Assembly: GCA_902630065.1 (NCBI GenBank)
Contig: CACOTF010000001.1
Span: 133,854 to 197,853 of the forward strand
DNA from: an uncultured Pelagibacteraceae bacterium
GTDB lineage: Bacteria > Pseudomonadota > Alphaproteobacteria > Pelagibacterales > Pelagibacteraceae
DNA: 64,000 nucleotides
Direction: 5' to 3'
Numbering within the stretch: the first letter of the stretch is position 1; each line of letters starts with the position of its first letter. A program made the position numbers and the translations under genes. Positions 15,266 to 26,605 of the stretch are shown piece by piece. The notes beneath the pieces were generated by a model, which was given only the letters and a program-made list of their open reading frames with translations, was not told the origin of the DNA and did not search any database.

Positions 15266-16051
15266 TTAAACTAAACTTGGAATTATTTTTCTTAAATCCA
15301 TTGAAAGCTTAGGGTTAATTTTTGAATAGATTACTCCCTTCCCTAATTTTTTTAGTGCCAATATTTTTCCATCTGGTGAAATAATTACTGTATGGCCAAA
15401 TGTTTCTCTTTTAGGGGTATTTTTACCAGTTTGAGCTGGCGCAAAAATATAACAAAAATTTTCAATAGCTCTTGCTCTTAAAAGGGTTAACCAATGTTTT
15501 TGTCCAGTAAACTTTGTAAAAGCTGAAGGAACTGCTATAAAGCTCAAATTTTTTTTTGATAAACTTCTATAAAGTTCAGGAAATCTTAGATCAAAACAGA
15601 TAGTAAATCCTAATCTACCCCAAGGTAAATTTGCTGTAACTAATTTGTTTCCTGCTTTAAAAGTTTTACTTTCTTTATGTTGTTCTTTATTTGGTATTTT
15701 TACATCAAACATATTGATTTTGTCATAATATTTGACAACTTTTCCATTTGGTCCAATCAATATTGACCTATTTCTAAGTTTATTTTTAACCTTAACGCAA
15801 ATTGATCCGAGTAAAATCCATTTCTTATATTTTTTTGAAACTTCTTTAATTTTCTTCAAAATTGGATCTTTATTCATTTCAAATGAATATTTAAAAAGTG
15901 TTTCTCTACTACTGGACATCAAGGAAGAGGTTTCAGGTGTAATAATTAAATCAGATTTATTTTTTATAGCTTGATTTACATATTTAAGAATATCTTTGTA
16001 ATTATTTTCATAATTTTCTCCACTAGATAATTGTATGCATGCTATTTTCAT
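15266..16051 (-). CDS. Carbon-nitrogen hydrolase (Nit1-like)
   Basis: Glu-Lys-Cys triad motifs TPE, YDK and ICFDLRFPE; RARAIEN. Confidence 0.9.
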   Translation of the reverse strand: MKIACIQLSSGENYENNYKDILKYVNQAIKNKSDLIITPETSSLMSSSRETLFKYSFEMNKDPILKKIKEVSKKYKKWILLGSICVKVKNKLRNRSILIGPNGKVVKYYDKINMFDVKIPNKEQHKESKTFKAGNKLVTANLPWGRLGFTICFDLRFPELYRSLSKKNLSFIAVPSAFTKFTGQKHWLTLLRARAIENFCYIFAPAQTGKNTPKRETFGHTVIISPDGKILALKKLGKGVIYSKINPKLSMDLRKIIPSLV

Positions 16052-16725
16052 GTTTGAAATCCATATTTTTTTTCCAAATATTTAATTACATTATGAATTA
16101 TAAAAGTCATAAACAAGTAAATACCTCCTGCCACAATAAATACTTCTACTGGCTTAAATGTTGTTGAAATTATATATTTAGCAACACCAGTTAAGTCCAT
16201 TAGTGTGACTGTGCTTGCTAATGATGTGCCTTTAAGCATTAAAATAATTTCATTGCCATAAGCTGGCAAAGATTGTTTTATTGCAATAGGAATTTGTATT
16301 TTTGTAAAAATAATTTTAGAAGGTATGCCTAAGCTTCTTCCAGCTTCTAAATATCCAGGTTTTATAGTTTGAAAAGCTGATCTCAATATTTCTGATGTAT
16401 AAGCACCTGTATTTAATGAAAATGCAATTATCGCGCACCAATATGGTTCTTTTAAAACTACCCACAAAACTGTTGTTCTTAAGTATTCAATTTGACCTAA
16501 TCCAAAATATATTATGAAAATTTGAACCAATAGAGGTGTTCCTCTGAATATATAAGAATAGCCGTAAGCAAATTTATTAATTAATTTATGACTATTCATT
16601 CTCAAAATTGCAAAACCTAATCCAATAAAAAGACCGACAATAAGAGATACAGACAATAGTTTAAGAGTAATCAAAGTTGCGTTTAGCAACTTAGGAAAAC
16701 TACTAATCATTAATTCAATATCCAT
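16048..16725 (-). CDS. Polar amino-acid ABC permease (HisM/OccM-like)
   Basis: RGTPLLVQ and LKGTSLAS motifs. Confidence 0.9.
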   Translation of the reverse strand: MDIELMISSFPKLLNATLITLKLLSVSLIVGLFIGLGFAILRMNSHKLINKFAYGYSYIFRGTPLLVQIFIIYFGLGQIEYLRTTVLWVVLKEPYWCAIIAFSLNTGAYTSEILRSAFQTIKPGYLEAGRSLGIPSKIIFTKIQIPIAIKQSLPAYGNEIILMLKGTSLASTVTLMDLTGVAKYIISTTFKPVEVFIVAGGIYLFMTFIIHNVIKYLEKKYGFQT

Positions 16726-17417
16726 TAATAACCTTTGCTATATTTTGTCTCTAATTTGTTTAATAATTGCATACTTAAAAATGTAAGAATTAAGTACAAA
16801 ACTGCTGCAAATGAGTAAAAAAATAATGGATCTCTTGTTGATCCAGCTGCAATATAAGATTGTCTCATTATTTCAACTAGACCAGTTACAGATATAAGAG
16901 AAGTATCTTTCAAAGTAATTTGCCAAACGTTACTTAAATTTGGAATTGCTAATCTAAGCATTTGAGGCAAAATAATTTTAAAGAAGTAAATATATTTATT
17001 AAATCCTAAAACTTTTGCAGCTTCAAACTGACCTCTGTCAATTGATTGTAATGCACCTCTAAATACTTCGGTTGAGTATGCTCCCGATATTATCCCTATT
17101 GAAAATGAACCTGTTAAAAAAGCATTAATTTCGATGTAATCATTATAACCAAATATAGAAGCAACAAACATAATTGCTCCGCTACCCCCAAAGAAAAATA
17201 AATAAATTACTAGAAGCTCTGGTACACCTCTAATAACAGTGGTGTATGCATTACCAATAGAATTAAGAAATTTATTATTAGATAATTTTAATGGAGTAAA
17301 TAAAGCAGCGAATATAAAGCCAATTATCATTGCGGTTATAGAGACCGCAATTGTCATTAAGGTTGCAAAGAATAACTCGTCTCCCCAACCTTTATCACCA
17401 AAATATAGAAGTTCCAT
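16725..17417 (-). CDS. Polar amino-acid ABC permease (HisQ/OccQ-like)
   Basis: RGVPELL, GQFEAA and LKDTSL motifs. Confidence 0.9.
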   Translation of the reverse strand: MELLYFGDKGWGDELFFATLMTIAVSITAMIIGFIFAALFTPLKLSNNKFLNSIGNAYTTVIRGVPELLVIYLFFFGGSGAIMFVASIFGYNDYIEINAFLTGSFSIGIISGAYSTEVFRGALQSIDRGQFEAAKVLGFNKYIYFFKIILPQMLRLAIPNLSNVWQITLKDTSLISVTGLVEIMRQSYIAAGSTRDPLFFYSFAAVLYLILTFLSMQLLNKLETKYSKGY

Positions 17418-17420
17418 AAT

Positions 17421-17446
17421 ATAGGTGGCTAATTATAGCCACCCAT
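17421..17446 (-). terminator. Intercistronic stem-loop after the binding-protein gene
   Basis: Minus strand ATGGGTGGCTA-TAAT-TAGCCACCTAT; 11 bp stem with one G-U pair. Confidence 0.6.
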
Positions 17447-17456
17447 AACTAATTTA

Positions 17457-18284
17457 TTACATAGAAGCGTCAAAACCAAAATGTTTTATAGCAAGCTTAC
17501 TAATAATGCCATCGTCTCTAGCTTTATCAATTGCTGCATTAAAATCATTTAAAAGTTTAGAGTCACCTTTTCTAATACCTACACCAACTCCATTTCCAAA
17601 GTCTCCACCTGCAAATGTTGGTCCAGTCAATACAACTCCTTTACCAGATTTTTCTGCATAATCTGTAAAAGCAACTGCTGCAGCTAGTGCTGCATCTATT
17701 CTACCAGCAGATAAGTCTAAGTTTACTTCATCTTGAGTCTTGTAAGTTCTAATTTTTACATTACCCATTAAACCAGACTCTAAGAAATTCTGATGAATTG
17801 TTGCTGTTTGTACACCTATAGTTTTACCTTTAAAAGCTTTAGTCAAAACATCTAGTGTTGCTTGCTCATCAGCACTTATATCTGTTAAATTTATAGCTGA
17901 CATTGTTTTAAGACCTTCATTTTTTGATCCCTTCATAACAGCTAGTGATGCAACTTCATCAGCATAACCTTGAGAAAAGTTTATTGTTTTCATTCTCTCA
18001 CCAGTTATTGACATTCCAGCCATGATAGCATCAAATTTTCTTGAAACTAAAGCTGGTATCATTCCATCCCAATCTTGCTCTACAATAGTGCAGTCATGTT
18101 TCATTATTTTGCATAATTCATTTGCTAATTCGACTTCAAAGCCAATCAAATTTCCAGCTGCGTCTTTAGAATTCCAAGGTGGATATGCACCTTCGGTTCC
18201 TATTTTAATTTGATCTGCAATTGAAGAAATTGTTAAGAATAATGATATTAAAATACCAAGTCCTAATACTTTTAATTTTTTCAT
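17457..18284 (-). CDS. Basic amino-acid/opine ABC substrate-binding protein
   Basis: IGTEGAYPPWN and QDWDGMIPAL motifs; start MKKLK at 18284 with GGAGG upstream. Confidence 0.9.
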   Translation of the reverse strand: MKKLKVLGLGILISLFLTISSIADQIKIGTEGAYPPWNSKDAAGNLIGFEVELANELCKIMKHDCTIVEQDWDGMIPALVSRKFDAIMAGMSITGERMKTINFSQGYADEVASLAVMKGSKNEGLKTMSAINLTDISADEQATLDVLTKAFKGKTIGVQTATIHQNFLESGLMGNVKIRTYKTQDEVNLDLSAGRIDAALAAAVAFTDYAEKSGKGVVLTGPTFAGGDFGNGVGVGIRKGDSKLLNDFNAAIDKARDDGIISKLAIKHFGFDASM

Positions 18285-18342
18285 ATTTTCCTCCAAAAAT
18301 TTTGAAGATTATTTCATAAAATTATTGTTTTAAAAAGAAAAA

Positions 18343-19383
18343 TTAATGATTTATTGACGAGGAAAAATTCCAAGAACAATCAAAACTTGGTATGTAAACT
18401 CTTGAAAGTTTTGTATTTCCAAAATTTTTGTTAAAAACATTTAACCAATTTTCAACTTGTTTTGGTTTTTTGTCTTGGCTTCCTACTTGAGCAGTAATTA
18501 CACCTTTGGGTTTTAATATTCTTTCTAAAGATGACATATTTTTCGCTGCCAAATCTATACAAAATTGATCATCATTAAGATCTACAAAGATTTGATCATA
18601 AGTATTGTCTTTGATAGATTTAATACTTTCAAAAGCATCTCCCCAAACACATTTAACTGAATTTTTTTCTGTGGCCTTCTCACCAATTTTGCTTAAATGT
18701 TTATCACAAACATCAACAACCTCGTGATCTAATTCATACCAATCAATAAATCCAAAATTTTGTGAAATGCATTCTCTTGCAACACCTCCATCACCTCCAC
18801 CAATAATTGCGGCTTTTTCTTTATTTGAGTTTAAATTAAGACCCGAATTTACAAAAGTTGAGCTATATAAATGTTCATCGCTTTCAGCTACTTGTATTTC
18901 ATTATCAATAAATAAAGCTTTTCCAAACTGTTCTAAATCAAGTATTTCAATATATTGACCAACTTTAGATTTAAAATTTTCCAAAACTTTATTAACAACA
19001 TATGATTTTTTTAAACCTGGGGAACTATAATTGTCATGATAAAGATCAATTGTATCTCTATTAAATTCTTTAATAATGATATTTGTATGTTCCATCTCAT
19101 ATTTTATTATATCCAGAGAAACTTTTGGAGATACTTTTCCACAAGTAAAAAAATCAAAGCTTACAATTTCTTTTTCTGGGAAAGTGTGAAAACTAATGTG
19201 ACTTTCAGCGAGTAAGGCAACTAATGTAAATCCTTGAGGTTCAAATTTATATTTAGAAATTTTTAAAACTGTTACTTTTGCTGCTTTAGCAATTTTATAA
19301 ACCAACTTTTCATAAAATTCAGGTGTGTATTCTTTTTTAGTTCCAACAATATCCAGTGTTATATGTTCGCCAACTTTTTCCAT
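18343..19383 (-). CDS. speD-speE: S-adenosylmethionine decarboxylase / spermidine synthase fusion
   Basis: N-terminal pyruvoyl cleavage motif LAESHISFHTFPE and TCG; C-terminal IGGGDGG aminopropyltransferase motif. Confidence 0.92.
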   Translation of the reverse strand: MEKVGEHITLDIVGTKKEYTPEFYEKLVYKIAKAAKVTVLKISKYKFEPQGFTLVALLAESHISFHTFPEKEIVSFDFFTCGKVSPKVSLDIIKYEMEHTNIIIKEFNRDTIDLYHDNYSSPGLKKSYVVNKVLENFKSKVGQYIEILDLEQFGKALFIDNEIQVAESDEHLYSSTFVNSGLNLNSNKEKAAIIGGGDGGVARECISQNFGFIDWYELDHEVVDVCDKHLSKIGEKATEKNSVKCVWGDAFESIKSIKDNTYDQIFVDLNDDQFCIDLAAKNMSSLERILKPKGVITAQVGSQDKKPKQVENWLNVFNKNFGNTKLSRVYIPSFDCSWNFSSSINH

Positions 19384-19472
19384 AAGAATCTAATAAATAT
19401 CTTTTTTAACTAACGAAATTTTTTACTTCTTTCAAACAAAAAACTATTATAATAATTTATTGAGGATAAACA

Positions 19473-21506
19473 TTGAAAAACAATTGGTCAGATACCGTAG
19501 CTAAAAAGTATATAAAAAAGTATAAGAAATTAGGTCATTCTGAAGATATGGCTTTAAGAGTTTATACAACTAGGCTTTTAGGAAGAAATCCAGAATTAGT
19601 ATTGCATGGTGGTGGAAATACTTCAGTTAAGACTAGAATCAAAGATATAGATGGCAAATATTACGATGTTCTTTGCGTAAAAGGCAGTGGATGGGATATG
19701 GCTGAAATTGAACCAGCAGGCCTACCAGCTGTTAAATTAGATCCGTTGCTTACTATGAAAAAAAAGAAAATACTTTCAGACGACGACATGGTTGCATTTC
19801 AAAAAAAAAATTTAATAGATACAAAATCACCTAATCCATCAGTTGAAACTTTTTTACATGCATTTTTGCCATATAAATTTGTTGATCATACTCATTCAGA
19901 TGCAATTATGAAAATCACTAATAGACCAAATGGAGAAATGCTATCAAAAAAAATATTTGGTAAAAAGACTGCAATAGTACCTTATGTAATGCCTGGATTT
20001 AAATTAGCACAAAAAATAAATGAAATTTATTCTAAAAACCCAAATATAAATTGTTTAATTTTATTAAACCATGGAATTTTCACATTTGCAAATAATGCAA
20101 AAGATGCATACAGTTTAATGATAAAGTATATATCCGATGCTGAAAAAACTTTAACCAAACTAAAAAAGAAAAAAATAAAACAGATCAAGAAAACTAAATT
20201 TAATTTTTCAACAGCAGACATAGCTCCTATATTGAGAGGTCTTTTATCTGAAAAAAATGATAACAAATTTATCTTAAATTTTAAAAAAAATAATAAGTTA
20301 GATTATTTTATTAATGGTAAAGATATAAATAGATATTCAAATGAAGGAACAGCTACTCCTGATCATGTGATAAGAGTTAAACCATTTCCTTTAATAATAT
20401 CACCAAAACCAAAATGTAGTTTGGATGAATTTAAAAATTTAGCTGAAAAAAAATTTAAAGAATACCGGCAAAAATATAAAAAATATTTTGATGTAAACAA
20501 GAAAAAAACAAAAGAAAAAAAGGTGATGCTTGATACATCTCCTAGAGTGATACTTGTTCAGAATTTTGGTTTATTTACCGTAGGTGACAGTTTAAAAGCT
20601 GCAAAAATTGCAGGAGATTTAACTCAAACTAATGCCAATGTAATTTCAAGTGTTGAAGAGACATCCAGATATAAATTCTTATCAAAAAAAGACTTATTTG
20701 ATGTCGAGTATTGGTCCTTAGAACAATCAAAATTAAACAAAGCAAAAAAGGAATTACAAGGCAACGTTGTTGTTATCACCGGTAGCACTGGTGAAATTGG
20801 TAAAGCAACTTATAAATTATTTAAAAAATATGGAGCTGAAGTTGTTTTACTTGATATTAATAAAAGTAAGATAAATGATTTACAGACTAAAATAAGCGAT
20901 CTTTGTATTCACTGTGATGTAACCAACAAACAAAGTGTAAAAAAAGCATTTAGTAAAATTTTGGAAATTTATGGAGGTGTAGACATTTTAATATCAAATG
21001 CAGGCACTGCTATTGGTGGATCAATTGCAGAAGTTAATGATGAAATACTTCGAAAAAGTTTCGAAGATAATTTTTTCTCACATCAAAATTGTGCTTCAGA
21101 GGCTGTAAAAATTATGAAAAAACAAAATATAAATGGATGTTTGTTATTTAATATATCTAAGCAATCAGTTAATCCTGGTAAAAATTTTGGACCATATGGA
21201 TTGCCTAAGTCTGCGCTTCTAAATTTGTGTAAACAATATGCAGTTGATTATGGACACCTTGGTATTAGATCAAATGGTGTTAATGCTGATAGAATAAGAA
21301 GTGGTCTATTAAATGATAAAATGATTAAACAAAGAGCAAAAGCTAGAGAAGTAACCACGGATCAATATATGAGTGGTAATCTACTGTTAAGCGAAGTTAA
21401 AGCAGATGATGTGGCTAAAGCTTTTTATCACCTTGCTATATCAAAAAAATCAACAGGTGCTGTTTTAACTGTTGATGGTGGAAATATTGCAGCATCTTTG
21501 CGATAG
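19473..21506 (+). CDS. Bifunctional class II aldolase / short-chain dehydrogenase
   Basis: GGGNTSVK, KGSG, PSVETFLH, DHTH and NHG (aldolase); TGSTGEIG, NAG, YGLPK and VDGG (SDR); TTG start. Confidence 0.9.
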   Translation: MKNNWSDTVAKKYIKKYKKLGHSEDMALRVYTTRLLGRNPELVLHGGGNTSVKTRIKDIDGKYYDVLCVKGSGWDMAEIEPAGLPAVKLDPLLTMKKKKILSDDDMVAFQKKNLIDTKSPNPSVETFLHAFLPYKFVDHTHSDAIMKITNRPNGEMLSKKIFGKKTAIVPYVMPGFKLAQKINEIYSKNPNINCLILLNHGIFTFANNAKDAYSLMIKYISDAEKTLTKLKKKKIKQIKKTKFNFSTADIAPILRGLLSEKNDNKFILNFKKNNKLDYFINGKDINRYSNEGTATPDHVIRVKPFPLIISPKPKCSLDEFKNLAEKKFKEYRQKYKKYFDVNKKKTKEKKVMLDTSPRVILVQNFGLFTVGDSLKAAKIAGDLTQTNANVISSVEETSRYKFLSKKDLFDVEYWSLEQSKLNKAKKELQGNVVVITGSTGEIGKATYKLFKKYGAEVVLLDINKSKINDLQTKISDLCIHCDVTNKQSVKKAFSKILEIYGGVDILISNAGTAIGGSIAEVNDEILRKSFEDNFFSHQNCASEAVKIMKKQNINGCLLFNISKQSVNPGKNFGPYGLPKSALLNLCKQYAVDYGHLGIRSNGVNADRIRSGLLNDKMIKQRAKAREVTTDQYMSGNLLLSEVKADDVAKAFYHLAISKKSTGAVLTVDGGNIAASLR

Positions 21507-21523
21507 TTTTAACAATTTTATTC

Positions 21524-21552
21524 TTGCAATTTATAATTTTTGTCTTCAAAAT
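21524..21552 (+). promoter_or_regulatory. Possible sigma70 promoter for trpB2
   Basis: TTGCAA-17 nt-CAAAAT; weak evidence in AT-rich DNA. Confidence 0.25.
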
Positions 21553-21566
21553 TAAGAATATAAAAA

Positions 21567-22928
21567 ATGACTGATACAATTAAATATTTTCTTGAAGAAA
21601 GCAAAATGCCTAAAACTTGGTATAATATTGCTGCTGATTTACCAAAACCAATGGAGCCACCTCTTCATCCGGGTACTTTAAAACCCATTGGTCCTGATGA
21701 TTTAGCTCCGTTGTTTCCTATGGCTTTAATTGGTCAAGAAGTTTCTCAAGATAGAGAGATAGAAATCCCTGAACCAGTAAGACAAATTTACAAACAGTGG
21801 AGACCATCTCCTTTATATAGAGCAAGAAAATTAGAAAAGCATTTAGATACTCCTGCAAAAATTTATTATAAATATGAAGGCGTTAGTCCTTCAGGTAGTC
21901 ATAAACCTAATACTGCTGTTGCTCAAGCATTTTACAATAAAGAGGAAGGCACAAAAAAAATTACAACTGAAACAGGTGCTGGACAGTGGGGAACTTCATT
22001 AGCATTTGCATGTAAATTATTTGGAATTGAATTAGACGTATACATGGTAAAAGTAAGTTTTGAACAAAAACCTTATAGAAAACTTGTTATGCAAACATAT
22101 GGGGCAAGATGTGTTGCTAGTCCATCTAATGAAACAGATAGTGGTAAAGCAATATTAGCTAAAGATCCAGATAACACTGGTAGTTTAGGTATAGCAATAT
22201 CTGAAGCAGTTGAGATGGCAGCAAAAAATCCAGATACAAAATATGCATTAGGCAGTGTATTAAATCATGTCTTAATGCACCAAACTATTGTTGGTAATGA
22301 AGCATTGTTACAAATGGAAATGGCAGATGACTATCCTGACATTTTAGTTGGTTGTACAGGTGGAGGAAGTAATTTTTCAGGTTTAGCAAATCCATTTTTA
22401 GGTAAAAATTTTAGAGAAGGTAAAAAAACAAGAGTGATAGCTTGTGAACCTAAGTCATGCCCTACATTAACAGAGGGTAAATATGTATATGATTTTGGTG
22501 ATACAGGAAAATTAACACCATTAGTAAAAATGCATACACTTGGGTCTCAATTTATACCACCAGCAACACACTCTGGAGGCTTGAGATATCATGGTATGGC
22601 TCCTTTAGTGAGTCATTTAAAAGAAATAAATGCCCTTGAAGCTAAAGCTTATGGTCAAAAAGAATGTTTCGAAGCTGGTGTAAATTTTGCAAGAACTGAA
22701 GGAATTGTTCCAGCACCAGAAGCTACTCATGCTGTTAAGGGAGCTATAGATGCTGCTTTAGAATGTAAGAAAAATGGAGAGTCTAAAACAATTTTATTCA
22801 ACTTATGTGGTCATGGTCATTTTGATATGAAAGCATACGGAGATTACTTCGAGGGAAATTTAGCAGAAGATAAGTTTGATAAAGGTAGTATGGATAAAGC
22901 TCTTGAGGACTTACCGAAAATTGCATAG
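21567..22928 (+). CDS. trpB2: TrpB2-type PLP enzyme (stand-alone tryptophan synthase beta)
   Basis: 453 aa; PKTWYNI, GSHKPNTA (PLP Lys), TETGAGQWG, GGGSNF and GGLRYHG; no trpA nearby. Confidence 0.9.
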   Translation: MTDTIKYFLEESKMPKTWYNIAADLPKPMEPPLHPGTLKPIGPDDLAPLFPMALIGQEVSQDREIEIPEPVRQIYKQWRPSPLYRARKLEKHLDTPAKIYYKYEGVSPSGSHKPNTAVAQAFYNKEEGTKKITTETGAGQWGTSLAFACKLFGIELDVYMVKVSFEQKPYRKLVMQTYGARCVASPSNETDSGKAILAKDPDNTGSLGIAISEAVEMAAKNPDTKYALGSVLNHVLMHQTIVGNEALLQMEMADDYPDILVGCTGGGSNFSGLANPFLGKNFREGKKTRVIACEPKSCPTLTEGKYVYDFGDTGKLTPLVKMHTLGSQFIPPATHSGGLRYHGMAPLVSHLKEINALEAKAYGQKECFEAGVNFARTEGIVPAPEATHAVKGAIDAALECKKNGESKTILFNLCGHGHFDMKAYGDYFEGNLAEDKFDKGSMDKALEDLPKIA

Positions 22929-22933
22929 TTATT

Positions 22934-24034
22934 TTGAGTCTCATAACACCATTTAGAGGAATAAGACCACAGGTTAAGTTTGCTAAAAAAATCTCATCAC
23001 CAAATATAAGTTACTTAAATAATTTTAAATTTAGCAAAGACAAAAACTTTCTTAATATTTTAAATAATCCAAATATATCTTATGCAAACAAAATATTTAA
23101 AGAATTAGAAAAAAATAAAATCATATTTCAAGACAAAAAAGATAACTATTATCTTTATAAAATATCATTTAAAAAAAAATACTTGTTAGGAATAGTAGGT
23201 AAAATAAATTTAAAAAACTACGACGACAAAAAAATTTTAGGACATGAAGAGACTTTTCCTGAAAGAATAAAAAAAAGAAAACAACAGTTAATAAAGTTTA
23301 ATACACAAATTAGTCCAATATATACTACATATAAGTTAAATAAGTTGTCTTTATCAACTTTAAAAAAACTTTTTAAATTTAAACCTAATTATGAATTTAT
23401 TTCAAATGATAAATGTAAACACGAATTATGGGTAATTGAAGATAAAGATAAACAGACTAAAGTACAAAAATATTTAAATAAAATTAAAAAATTATACATT
23501 TGTGATGGACATCATAGACTTCAAGCGATGTTAAAAAGTAAAGAAAAAATTTCACCTATGATTATAGCTTTTCCAGATAAGCAAGTTGAAATATTGGATT
23601 ACAATAGAGTCATACAATCAAATTTAAATTTTAAACAAATACATAATATAATTTCAAAATACTTTTCTATTAAAATAAAGAAAACTAAAAAACTAAAAAA
23701 AAATGAAATTGGAATGTATATAAATAATACATGGTATATTATTAAATACCTAAAAAAATCCAAAGATTTAGATATTACAATTCTTAAAAAATTTATTATT
23801 GATAAAATTTTAAAAAATAAAAAAAATATAAAGTATGTATCTGGTATTAAAGGAGATGTTATATTAAAAAAACTTGTTAATTCAGGTAAATTTAATGTTG
23901 CATTTAAATTAAATCCTACAAATCTTTTACAAGTAATGTCTTTTGCTGAGAAGAAAAAGTATATGCCTCAAAAATCCACTTGGTTTCATCCAAAACCGCT
24001 TGATGGTTTAATATTGTCAAAAGTTATTTCTTAA
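22934..24034 (+). CDS. DUF1015 family protein (ParB/Srx-like fold)
   Basis: PFRGIRP, HEET, YICDGHHR and MPQKSTWFHPK motifs. Confidence 0.88.
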   Translation: MSLITPFRGIRPQVKFAKKISSPNISYLNNFKFSKDKNFLNILNNPNISYANKIFKELEKNKIIFQDKKDNYYLYKISFKKKYLLGIVGKINLKNYDDKKILGHEETFPERIKKRKQQLIKFNTQISPIYTTYKLNKLSLSTLKKLFKFKPNYEFISNDKCKHELWVIEDKDKQTKVQKYLNKIKKLYICDGHHRLQAMLKSKEKISPMIIAFPDKQVEILDYNRVIQSNLNFKQIHNIISKYFSIKIKKTKKLKKNEIGMYINNTWYIIKYLKKSKDLDITILKKFIIDKILKNKKNIKYVSGIKGDVILKKLVNSGKFNVAFKLNPTNLLQVMSFAEKKKYMPQKSTWFHPKPLDGLILSKVIS

Positions 24035-25103
24035 ATAAGTTTTCTAATCCTTCAGTTGAAGCATTACAAACTCCTTTTTCTGTTATTAATGCAGTAACAT
24101 ATTTAGCAGGTGTTACATCAAAGGCTAAATTTAATGATTTGCTTTTTTCGGGATATATTAAAACTTTATCCACTTTATTATCTTTGTTAATTCCATCCAC
24201 ATGAGAAAGTTCTTTTGGATCTCTTTCTTCTATAGGAATATCTTTTGCGTTTTTTAAATTCCAATCTATCGTTGAACTTGGTAAAGCTACGTAAAAAGGT
24301 ACCTTATTATCATGAGCTGCAAGAGCTTTTAAATAGGTTCCAATTTTATTGCACACATCTCCGTTAGATAATGTTCTATCTGTTCCAACAATACACATAT
24401 CAACCTGTCCTCTTTGCATTAATATTCCACCTGTATTATCTGCTATAATTGTATTTGGAATTTCTTCTTCATTAAGTTCATATGATGTAAGGTTTGCTCC
24501 TTGATTTCTTGGTCTAGTTTCATCTACCCAAACATGTATAGGTATTCCTTTTTTATGTGCATGATAAATAGGAGAAGTTGCTGTTCCCCAATCTATTGTA
24601 GCTAACCAACCTGCATTACAATGTGTGAGAATATTGACGGTATCTTTCTTTTTATTATATATATCTTCAATAATATTTAATCCATTTTTACCAATACTTT
24701 CACAAAATCCCTCATCCTCTTTACAAATTTCTTTAGCTTCATTGAGTGCAACATTAAATAAATCTCCAGGTTCAACAAATGACAATTTGTTATTCATTCT
24801 ATGAACTGCCCACTGAAGATTTATTGCTGTTGGTCTAGATGCAACTAATTTCTCTGAACTTTTTTTTATAAAATCTAAACTGTTATTTTCTTTTATAGCT
24901 AAAACCAATCCAAATGCAGCTGTACCTCCGATTAATGGAGCACCTCTCACTTCCATTGTTTTTATAGCATTTATCGCGTCTTTAACTGAATTTAATTCTT
25001 TTATTATAAACTTATGTGGAAGCTTTGTTTGATCTATTATTTTTACAACCTGTTTTTCTTCATCAAACCAAATTGTTTTATATTTAACACCATTAATTTT
25101 CAT
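24024..25103 (-). CDS. mtnA: Methylthioribose-1-phosphate isomerase
   Basis: DQTKLP, VRGAPLIG, SRPTAINL, THCNAGWLAT, ETRP and NKIGTY motifs. Confidence 0.95.
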   Translation of the reverse strand: MKINGVKYKTIWFDEEKQVVKIIDQTKLPHKFIIKELNSVKDAINAIKTMEVRGAPLIGGTAAFGLVLAIKENNSLDFIKKSSEKLVASRPTAINLQWAVHRMNNKLSFVEPGDLFNVALNEAKEICKEDEGFCESIGKNGLNIIEDIYNKKKDTVNILTHCNAGWLATIDWGTATSPIYHAHKKGIPIHVWVDETRPRNQGANLTSYELNEEEIPNTIIADNTGGILMQRGQVDMCIVGTDRTLSNGDVCNKIGTYLKALAAHDNKVPFYVALPSSTIDWNLKNAKDIPIEERDPKELSHVDGINKDNKVDKVLIYPEKSKSLNLAFDVTPAKYVTALITEKGVCNASTEGLENLFKK

Positions 25104-25972
25104 TAAGTAAGAACTCTTCCTGCAATTGTTTTTAATTTATCTTTAGTTTTTTGAGTTCTTTTTTCTGGAGCAGTAATTATTGCTACATCTAAGCAATTAT
25201 TAGTTGGATCCTTAGGATCAATGTGATTTTCAAAGTTCTCTATCAAATTTTTAATCATGTTTTTTGCTTTCGCTGCATTATCTAAGAGTACTTTTATAAC
25301 TTGTTGAACATCCACATTTTCATGATCTGGATGCCAGCAATCATAATCTGTTACCATTGAAACTGAAGCATATCTAATTTCTGCTTCTCTTGCTAGTTTA
25401 GCTTCTGGCATATTTGTCATTCCAATAACATCTGCTTTCCATGATCTATATAGGTTTGACTCTGCTAATGTAGAAAATTGTGGACCTTCCATTACAACAT
25501 AAGTTCCACCTCTTTGATAAGGTATGCTTTCTTTTTTTATAGCATCTTCGCAAGCATTCATCAGCCCATTTGAGGTTGGGTGTGCCATTGATACATGTGC
25601 AACAATCTCATCATCAAAAAAAGTTTTGTATCTTGCAAAAGTTCTATCAATGAATTGATCAACGATAACAAATTTACCTGGAGGCAAATCTTCCTTTAAA
25701 GATCCAACTGCTGAAACAGAAACTATATCTGTGATACCTAGTTGTTTAAGAGCATCTATATTTGCTCTAAAATTTATTTTTGATGGAGAAATAAAATGAC
25801 CTTTTCCATGTCTTGGTAAAAAAAAAATTTCTTTATTATTATATTCAGCTTTTAATATTAAATCTGAGGGTTTTCCCCAAGGAGTGTTTAAATCTAAAGT
25901 TTCTCTATCTTTAAACTCTTCAACATCATATAGGCCACTTCCACCAATAATTGCTAATTTATTATTTGCCAT
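25103..25972 (-). CDS. mtnP: Methylthioadenosine phosphorylase
   Basis: IIGGSGLY, RHG, EGPQFSTLAES, GMT and TDYDCWH motifs. Confidence 0.95.
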   Translation of the reverse strand: MANNKLAIIGGSGLYDVEEFKDRETLDLNTPWGKPSDLILKAEYNNKEIFFLPRHGKGHFISPSKINFRANIDALKQLGITDIVSVSAVGSLKEDLPPGKFVIVDQFIDRTFARYKTFFDDEIVAHVSMAHPTSNGLMNACEDAIKKESIPYQRGGTYVVMEGPQFSTLAESNLYRSWKADVIGMTNMPEAKLAREAEIRYASVSMVTDYDCWHPDHENVDVQQVIKVLLDNAAKAKNMIKNLIENFENHIDPKDPTNNCLDVAIITAPEKRTQKTKDKLKTIAGRVLT

Positions 25973-26000: not shown

Positions 26001-26528
26001 ATGGATTTAAAAGAACATATTAGATCAATTCAAGACTATCCTAAAAAGGGAATTCTATTTAGAGACATCACAACTCTCATAAAAAATGAAAAAGCATTTA
26101 AAGAATGTATTGATCAAATAGTAGAGAGATCAAAAAAATTTAATTTTGATAAAATAGCAGCTGTAGAATCTAGGGGTTTTGTATTTGCTTCTGCTATTTC
26201 ATACATCTTAGATAAGCCATTTATAATGTTAAGAAAAAAAAATAAACTACCCGCTGAGGTACATTCTGTTGATTTTGAGCTAGAATATGGAACGGCTACA
26301 ATTGAAGTTCATAAAGACTCATTTAATGAAAGCGATAATGTATTAATTATTGATGACTTAATTGCAACTGGAGGTACTGCTGAAGCTGCAGCTAAACTAA
26401 TAGAAATATCAAAAAGCAAGGTTGCAGGATTTATTTTTGTAATTAATTTGTTTGATCTTGGTGGTACTGATAATCTTTTAAAAAAAGGATATAAAGTTGA
26501 AAATCTTTTAGATTTTCCTGGTCATTGA
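26001..26528 (+). CDS. apt: Adenine phosphoribosyltransferase
   Basis: GILFRDIT, ESRGF, LEYG and IDDLIATGGT motifs. Confidence 0.96.
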   Translation: MDLKEHIRSIQDYPKKGILFRDITTLIKNEKAFKECIDQIVERSKKFNFDKIAAVESRGFVFASAISYILDKPFIMLRKKNKLPAEVHSVDFELEYGTATIEVHKDSFNESDNVLIIDDLIATGGTAEAAAKLIEISKSKVAGFIFVINLFDLGGTDNLLKKGYKVENLLDFPGH

Positions 26529-26605
26529 TGGTAGCGGGAAGTGGGATCGAACCACTGACCTCGGGCTTATGAGTCCCGCGCTCTAACCAACTGAGCTACC
26601 CCGCC
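26529..26605 (-). tRNA. tRNA with CAT anticodon (probably elongator Met)
   Basis: GGCGGGGTAGCTCAGTTGGTTAGAGCGCGGGACTCATAAGCCCGAGGTCAGTGGTTCGATCCCACTTCCCGCTACCA; 77 nt, encoded CCA; lacks initiator features; Ile2 not fully excluded. Confidence 0.93.

Follow-up and report, generated by a model that had tools for sequence, protein, structure and literature searches.

A trpB2-DUF1015 gene pair in a Pelagibacteraceae genome: remnant of a phosphoserine-pathway cluster and possible serine kinase-TrpB2 couple

Why would a bacterium that carries a canonical trpB1-trpA pair keep a second TrpB paralogue, TrpB2, with a DUF1015 gene directly behind it? We addressed this question in a 64-kb window of contig CACOTF010000001.1 (assembly GCA_902630065.1) from an uncultured Pelagibacteraceae bacterium, the window here meaning the whole stretch of DNA that was analyzed (64,000 nucleotides). 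The window genome (G000) comprises 963 kb, is 67.7% complete and has a GC content of 29%. An initial annotation, made from the sequence alone, had described a trpB2 gene without an adjacent trpA, followed 5 nt later by a DUF1015 gene. Indeed, trpB1-trpA of this genome is located on a separate contig, and the spacer between the two genes has exactly this length (Table 1). Our results indicate that the pair is the remnant of a trpB2-DUF1015-serC-serA cluster. We put at roughly 0.5 the probability that its two products also form a coupled system, in which the DUF1015 protein would phosphorylate free serine and TrpB2 would consume the resulting O-phospho-L-serine (OPS).

Both open reading frames (ORFs) match their families strongly and therefore do not represent a chance pair. 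The DUF1015 protein scored 168.2 bits against PF06245 (cut-off 25.8), and its TTG start codon falls at residue 1 when the protein is placed on the family consensus (M..I.PF.A.RP). The HEE and DGHHR motifs reported in the initial annotation were found as GHEETF (H104-E105-E106) and CDGHHR (D191-R195). Family-invariant columns were taken from an alignment of 140 DUF1015 representatives, and all eight invariant residues (E105, D191, G192, H194, R195, K347, T349 and P353) are kept in the window protein. Its AlphaFold2 model (pLDDT 93.4, pTM 0.92) was searched against the PDB with Foldseek, and the top nine matches were all SerK or SbnI, with a probability of 1.0 and E-values from 9e-8 to 7e-7. They comprise SerK entries 5x0b, 5x0e, 5x0g, 5x0j and 5x0k with the P. 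furiosus homologue 1vk1, and SbnI entries 5uje, 5ujd and 6nr6; the tenth match had an E-value of 5e-3. Superposition with VIA-align gave a Z score of 16.1 for SerK (5x0k; root-mean-square deviation 4.0, 225/240 residues) and 14.1 for SbnI (5uje; 213 residues aligned), in contrast to 5.7 for sulfiredoxin and 4.9 for ParB/Noc as generic fold relatives. SerK and SbnI are thus the only whole-length matches of the model. The superposition on SerK and SbnI that had been predicted for DUF1015 was therefore obtained, with the catalytic motifs aligned as well.

Single-sequence phmmer of the DUF1015 protein against the PDB gave no relevant match and no similarity to SerK or SbnI. The profile alignment with SerK (5x0b, 1vk1) is collinear in three motifs, kHEkT of DUF1015 corresponding to PHEQL of SerK, ADGHHR to VDGHHR, and PPKST to SPKTT. 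The SerK positions H29-E30, D69-R73 (DGHHR) and PK(S/T)T match the invariant residues of DUF1015, and E30 is altered in several PDB entries (E30A/E30Q). Judging from the modelled fold and these motifs, the window protein is a putative free-serine kinase.

The DUF1015 family has been named SerBK and proposed to be a serine kinase (Price et al., GapMind 2026; bioRxiv 10.1101/2024.10.14.618325; PLoS Genet 2026). That study found DUF1015 genes clustered with both serA and serC and obtained SbnI as the best Foldseek match; CBO1128 complements E. coli serB, and BT1151 is required for growth of B. thetaiotaomicron on serine as nitrogen source. Because CBO1128 replaces serB and BT1151 is needed for serine use, SerBK may run in either direction. 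The authors left the reaction direction and the nucleotide open and noted that the reverse serine kinase reaction is thermodynamically unfavourable; their paper does not mention trpB2 or SAR11. The serine kinase proposed in the initial annotation hence fits both fold and motifs, but the idea had already been published and the enzyme may work either way.

The upstream ORF scored 729.7 bits against NF009057 (TrpB-like pyridoxal phosphate (PLP) enzyme; cut-off 366) and 626.9 bits against TIGR01415, whereas its score of 146 bits against the canonical trpB model TIGR00263 is below the cut-off of 392. The closest structures are TrpB2 of S. solfataricus (E 6.6e-132 for 6hul_B and 8e-115 for 4qys_B), with which it shares GSHKPN (residues 110-115) containing the PLP lysine Lys113 and ETGAGQWG (135-142). 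The GGLRYHG motif of the TrpB2 proteins examined here is also common to structures 4qys and 6hul. The arginine of this motif presumably replaces Asp305 of canonical TrpB and could bind the phosphate. The glutamate of ETGAGQWG activates indole in TrpB1. TrpB2 enzymes are OPS-dependent according to a paper that cites Busch 2014; this preference is known in vitro, and its physiological role has so far been unclear. By analogy, the window TrpB2 would use OPS as well, with indole as the probable nucleophile. TrpB1 of the window genome (contig C2:111483-112592) scored 389.4 bits, just below the TIGR00263 cut-off of 392.45, and reads GAGITYFS where canonical TrpB reads GLDYPG. A Sargasso Sea survey described a distinct SAR11 trpB_1 cluster, which this TrpB1 fits.

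The history of the pair was revealed by comparison with relatives. Between speDE and mtnA, in the position syntenic with the pair, genome G022 of the same genus carries trpB2, a 400-aa DUF1015 gene, serC and serA in this order. The product of its serC matches the phosphoserine transaminase model TIGR01365 with 568 bits (cut-off 448), and its serA is a short phosphoglycerate-dehydrogenase-like gene. The same trpB2-DUF1015-serC-serA order occurs in G042, G047 and G057 from other genera of the family, in a contig of a single amplified genome (L038) and in G359 from another family. The DUF1015-serC-serA core without trpB2 was found in G025, which belongs to a sister family with DUF1015 in 15/16 genomes, and in G189. 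In G025 (= L027) this core is extended to a DUF1015-serC-serA-gpmA cluster. The window DUF1015 is not encoded with serA and serC; convergent mtnA follows it directly, on the side where relatives have serC-serA. Such neighbours are a contextual hallmark of SerBK and do not define the family.

The reduced state, in which trpB2 and a shortened ("type S") DUF1015 are followed by convergent mtnA, is shared by the window with G113 and G151, two closed single-contig genomes from its genus that are 99% complete. Both show full synteny with the window, with 93% identity in TrpB2 and 64% in DUF1015. Metagenomic contigs L113, L114, L115, L116 and L032 are also of type S and, where visible, have trpB2 upstream and the mtnA C-terminus downstream. 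The DUF1015/mtnA junction of the window recurs in G113, G151, L113 and L032, and in L032 the DUF1015 gene has the same TTG start, 7 nt after trpB2. Type S proteins are approximately 35-40 residues shorter than the longer (type L) form, with the losses in loops. In the DUF1015 tree, type S (99% support) is nested in a clade with the order's other copies (98% SH-aLRT support) and therefore diverged in place; a foreign origin of the divergent window copy was rejected on this nesting and the syntenic site. These data indicate that the window pair is the remnant of the four-gene cluster. A 43-aa SerA-like tblastn match at 24025-24153 of the window was discarded as a serA remnant, since it reads the conserved 3' end of mtnA in antisense. 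Separately, contig L034 (3147 nt, from a Tara metagenome-assembled genome) carries a trpB2 gene 73% identical to that of the window and, after about 115 nt, a DUF1015 gene outside the clade of the SAR11 order. It ends before any serC could show, and may represent an independent trpB2-DUF1015 adjacency.

Both genes of the pair are under purifying selection in type S. The ratio of nonsynonymous to synonymous substitution rates (dN/dS) of DUF1015 is 0.064 between G113 and G151, 0.12 between the window and L116 (dS 0.36), and 0.11-0.19 between the window and L113, L115 and G113, these last being saturated pairs. For TrpB2, dN/dS is 0-0.06 overall and 0.04 against G113. Type S copies of DUF1015 have diverged to 47-65% identity with the arrangement kept. 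We read type S DUF1015 as a protein with a constrained catalytic core and a relaxed surface and loops, which would not be a state of decay.

Where would a type S cell obtain OPS? The family sample comprised 121 genomes that are at least 80% complete plus the window genome, in which related genomes are non-independent observations. DUF1015 was found in six genomes (approximately 5%) and TrpB2 in seven, and trpB2 immediately precedes DUF1015 in 6/6 cases. The initial annotation had seen a two-gene indole-scavenging module in the pair. Its gene order does recur in every DUF1015-bearing family genome sampled and in two further lineages, but the two-gene form is a remnant and is neither autonomous nor widely conserved. 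Neither G113 nor G151 has a match to serC_2, serC_1 or serB apart from a 26-bit HAD match in a 753-aa ORF, and their best gene resembling phosphoglycerate dehydrogenase (278 bits) is the paralogue that type L genomes carry besides the operon serA. No SerC-like sequence was found by tblastn in the 67.7% of the window genome that is available, and serC is absent in 9/9 closed genomes of the genus without the pair. In contrast, among 400 alphaproteobacterial genomes sampled across the class, serC was above the cut-off in 32/32 TrpB2-positive ones. In type S, DUF1015 is therefore the only candidate for supplying OPS, and no other case was seen in which, judging from gene content, it would be the sole source.

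Serine metabolism is uneven across the order. The window's family is famous for serine and glycine auxotrophy. A minority of this family (G042, G047, G057 and G022) has serC together with DUF1015, and in one genus (2/2 genomes, G049 and G059) serC occurs without DUF1015 or TrpB2. Lineages with serC or DUF1015 may not share the auxotrophy.

Taken together, the following mechanism can be proposed. In the ancestral cluster, SerA and SerC would have made OPS from 3-phosphoglycerate, SerBK would have interconverted OPS and serine, and TrpB2 would have condensed OPS with indole. The type S lineage would then have deleted serC-serA and kept trpB2 with a trimmed, faster-evolving and constrained DUF1015, the two genes forming a putative transcription unit that is probably translationally coupled. 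In this lineage SerBK would most likely convert serine with ATP or ADP to OPS, and TrpB2, as the sole OPS consumer, would convert OPS and indole to tryptophan and inorganic phosphate, providing an indole-scavenging side route beside canonical TrpAB. A more far-reaching version, which we hold only tentatively, is that a SAR11-type subclade unable to make phosphoserine from 3-phosphoglycerate uses SerBK purely as an ATP-spending serine kinase, with TrpB2 as its only client turning trace indole into tryptophan. If true, the locus would be a natural experiment showing in which direction SerBK runs in vivo and that a bacterial TrpB2 depends on OPS in the cell, as genomes with DUF1015 and without serC and serB would leave only the kinase direction meaningful.

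Several observations weigh against this coupled kinase and TrpB2. The DUF1015 profile matches SerK sequences weakly (E 0.024 for 1vk1 and 0.29 for 5x0b; range 0.024-0.4), and the motif equivalence therefore rests on structure and motif order. Published support for DUF1015 is genetic and, with the serB complementation, includes the opposite direction. The incompleteness of the window genome limits the absence calls made in it. In the class sample, TrpB2 occurs in 32 genomes and DUF1015 in 41; both occur in five against 3.3 expected, which is near chance, and the genes are adjacent in 1/5 of these. Among diverse DUF1015 loci, TrpB2 is adjacent in 2/80 and a SerA-like gene in approximately 30/80. 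A general TrpB2-DUF1015 association was rejected on these adjacency and co-occurrence counts, the two genes being neighbours in a few lineages only. The rate of DUF1015 relative to TrpB2 is 4.7x in type S versus 1.7-2.3x in type L, which could mean a relaxed or changed function. Moreover, G063 (93% complete) carries trpB2 alone, DUF1015-serC-serA being deleted and no serC found in this genome, and its trpB2 is intact and conserved (dN/dS 0.04); TrpB2 can thus be retained, for some time at least, where both OPS sources are missing. The first 11 DUF1015 codons (MHFINPFKGL...) are left just after this trpB2 (L125 = G063:C1, 8347-8379), which suggests a recent deletion. The lone trpB2 of G063, the chance-level co-occurrence, and the accelerated change and loop deletions of type S DUF1015 all favour a merely historical link, in which TrpB2 uses free serine, DUF1015 is kept for an unrelated or shifted function, and adjacency reflects descent from the four-gene cluster. 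We consider this explanation unlikely, if the least so among the alternatives, since DUF1015 alone survived among the three genes downstream of trpB2, and the two-gene state lasted under purifying selection through a type S divergence to approximately 50% identity with all invariant catalytic residues kept. The 5-7 nt spacing and the conserved TTG start further argue against it and suggest co-translation. The least credible of the alternatives is that the window DUF1015 is a decaying leftover of the serC-serA loss. Its identity to the syntenic G022 copy is 33-37%, against 66-92% for the flanking genes, its GC content, 20.6%, is below the 28-35% of its neighbours, it has the type S shortening, and in one metagenomic relative (L115, a Tara scaffold) a frameshift in an A9 homopolymer at about 1000-1020 interrupts the type S DUF1015, which could stem from misassembly, from slippage or from a true pseudogene. 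However, the window, G113, G151 and L032 all have an uninterrupted reading frame, dN/dS is 0.06-0.19, the deletions fall in loops, and GC at third codon positions is the same as in the neighbours (0.14), so that the low GC content reflects a K/N/I-rich amino-acid composition rather than codon usage. With these intact frames and low dN/dS, the eight invariant residues and the confident model largely refute a pseudogene. A 95%-identical fragment (L117; 0.63x coverage) with 23 gap openings or frameshifts over both genes was treated as sequencing error.

The other two alternatives concern the direction of DUF1015 and the nucleophile of TrpB2. Type S cells, as serine and glycine auxotrophs, might salvage OPS, either taken up from the surroundings or released as phosphoproteins turn over, with DUF1015 converting it to serine and TrpB2 drawing independently on the same pool. 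CBO1128 does work from OPS to serine in E. coli in vivo, and serC is absent from the nine closed same-genus genomes without the pair as well as from G113 and G151, so that serine supply would be limiting in the genus. A polar amino-acid ABC transporter is also encoded nearby. On the other hand, no OPS transporter was identified, the proximity of this transporter to the pair is seen only within the genus (G022, G113 and G151), the reaction would run in the direction that the SerBK authors called unfavourable, and a salvage step of general use would be expected in more than the approximately 5% of the family that carry the gene; we regard salvage as rather improbable. Alternatively, DUF1015 would supply OPS as in the coupled reading, while TrpB2 would combine it with sulfide or methanethiol to give cysteine or S-methylcysteine, as the initial annotation had considered in view of the methylthio-salvage setting. 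This setting is real, in that speDE and mtnA-mtnP-apt flank the pair within the genus. TrpB-family enzymes can also accept thiols in vitro. Nevertheless, the four-gene cluster has unrelated flanks in G042, G047 and G359, and the methylthio neighbourhood, being confined to the genus, is therefore incidental and gives no basis for such a nucleophile. The window TrpB2 shares 83-93% identity with its counterparts in relatives where the gene has other surroundings, and it retains the ETGAGQWG glutamate, making a sulfur nucleophile very doubtful. Weighing all this, we favour the coupled serine kinase and TrpB2 at the even odds given above.

Table 1 Features of the trpB2-DUF1015 locus and its surroundings (window coordinates)
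Feature	Coordinates	Strand	Description
Polar amino-acid ABC transporter	16048-18296		Near the pair
SpeD-SpeE fusion	18343-19383	-	346 aa; S-adenosylmethionine decarboxylase and spermidine synthase domains in a single ORF
Bifunctional class II aldolase/short-chain dehydrogenase	19473-21506	+	677 aa; NF006192, 898 bits; between speDE and trpB2
Promoter-like site	21509..21537	+	TTAACA-17 nt-TATAAT; in the 60-nt gap 5' of trpB2
trpB2	21567..22928	+	ATG start, 453 aa; TrpB-like fold-type II PLP enzyme, extra paralogue beside canonical trpB1-trpA
Spacer	22929..22933	+	5 nt; trpB2 stop TAG to DUF1015 start TTG
DUF1015/SerBK-family gene	22934..24034	+	TTG start, 366 aa; shortened type S form; predicted free-serine kinase fold
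mtnA	24024..25103	-	S-methyl-5-thioribose-1-phosphate isomerase; convergent with DUF1015; NF004326, 450 bits
MTAP	25103-25972		In the methylthioadenosine (MTA)-salvage flank
Apt	26001-26528		In the MTA-salvage flank
tRNA gene	26532-26605	-	Rfam, 62.6 bits; directly after apt

The placement of the pair within a methylthio-salvage cluster, as first described, agrees with the MTA-salvage and polyamine genes on its flanks (Table 1). The 3' ends of DUF1015 and mtnA overlap by 11 nt. The promoter-like site is the top consensus match in 19300-24300 (11/12); it is a consensus match only, and the site total across the region is not above that of shuffled sequences. In an Rfam scan of the 64-kb window, the tRNA gene was the sole gathering-level match, and no riboswitch was found near trpB2-DUF1015. 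The SpeD-SpeE fusion is also present in G022, G113 and G151 (78-81% identity). In the slot of the window aldolase/dehydrogenase, G022 has a 219-aa fuculose-phosphate-aldolase-like gene instead, and G113 and G151 have a gap of approximately 690 nt without a gene matching any window ORF. The window sequence is present in marine metagenome runs from seven studies, and two metatranscriptome runs contain 0.20-0.24 of its words.

The families, the kinase assignment and the logic of a serine kinase feeding an OPS-using PLP enzyme are already known; new relative to the literature searched are the link to TrpB2, the four-gene cluster and the reduced two-gene form without serC and serB. The locus thereby shows variation in serine metabolism inside the family, with DUF1015 either in the full cluster or in the two-gene form. 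The window DUF1015 shares Pfam family PF06245 and an SbnI/SerK-like predicted fold with the SerBK proteins CDIF630erm_01132, CBO1128 and BT1151, and its relatives lie in DUF1015-serC-serA clusters as published for SerBK. In contrast, the window DUF1015 is a member of a faster-evolving subclade of shortened proteins (366-375 aa versus 400-420 aa) that lacks serC and serA neighbours, occurs in genomes without serC and serB, and is always preceded by trpB2. The window TrpB2 is in the same NCBIfam family as TrpB2 (TrpB2_o type) of Thermotoga maritima and Sulfolobus solfataricus, and matches the TrpB2_o pattern in lying outside a trp operon while trpB1-trpA is present elsewhere in the genome. However, trpB2 of the window type heads a phosphoserine-pathway cluster, whereas a 2007 survey found no conserved neighbourhood for trpB2 outside trp operons. 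The trpB2-serBK-serC-serA cluster is the first genomic-context support that we found for OPS as an in vivo substrate of TrpB2.

Among the kinases, SerK of Thermococcus kodakarensis (TK0378) is the best structural match and has the HE, DGHHR and PK(S/T)T motifs in common with DUF1015. It differs in being an ADP-dependent archaeal enzyme of 240 aa, which feeds cysteine synthesis and serine catabolism, and in having no significant sequence similarity to the window protein by phmmer. In Desulfurococcales, serK homologues also adjoin serA and aminotransferase genes. SbnI of Staphylococcus aureus is more distant, with 12-15% sequence identity to the window DUF1015, and is without its N-terminal part of about 70 residues (the SbnI alignment does not cover model residues 1-69). 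SbnA, encoded in the same cluster as SbnI, is a fold-type II PLP beta-replacement enzyme which uses glutamate rather than indole and forms a siderophore precursor. SbnI, a free serine kinase of the ParB/Srx fold, supplies O-phosphoserine for staphyloferrin B synthesis, as stated in the cited title of Verstraete 2018. The SbnI-SbnA couple thus follows the same logic as that proposed here for DUF1015 and TrpB2.

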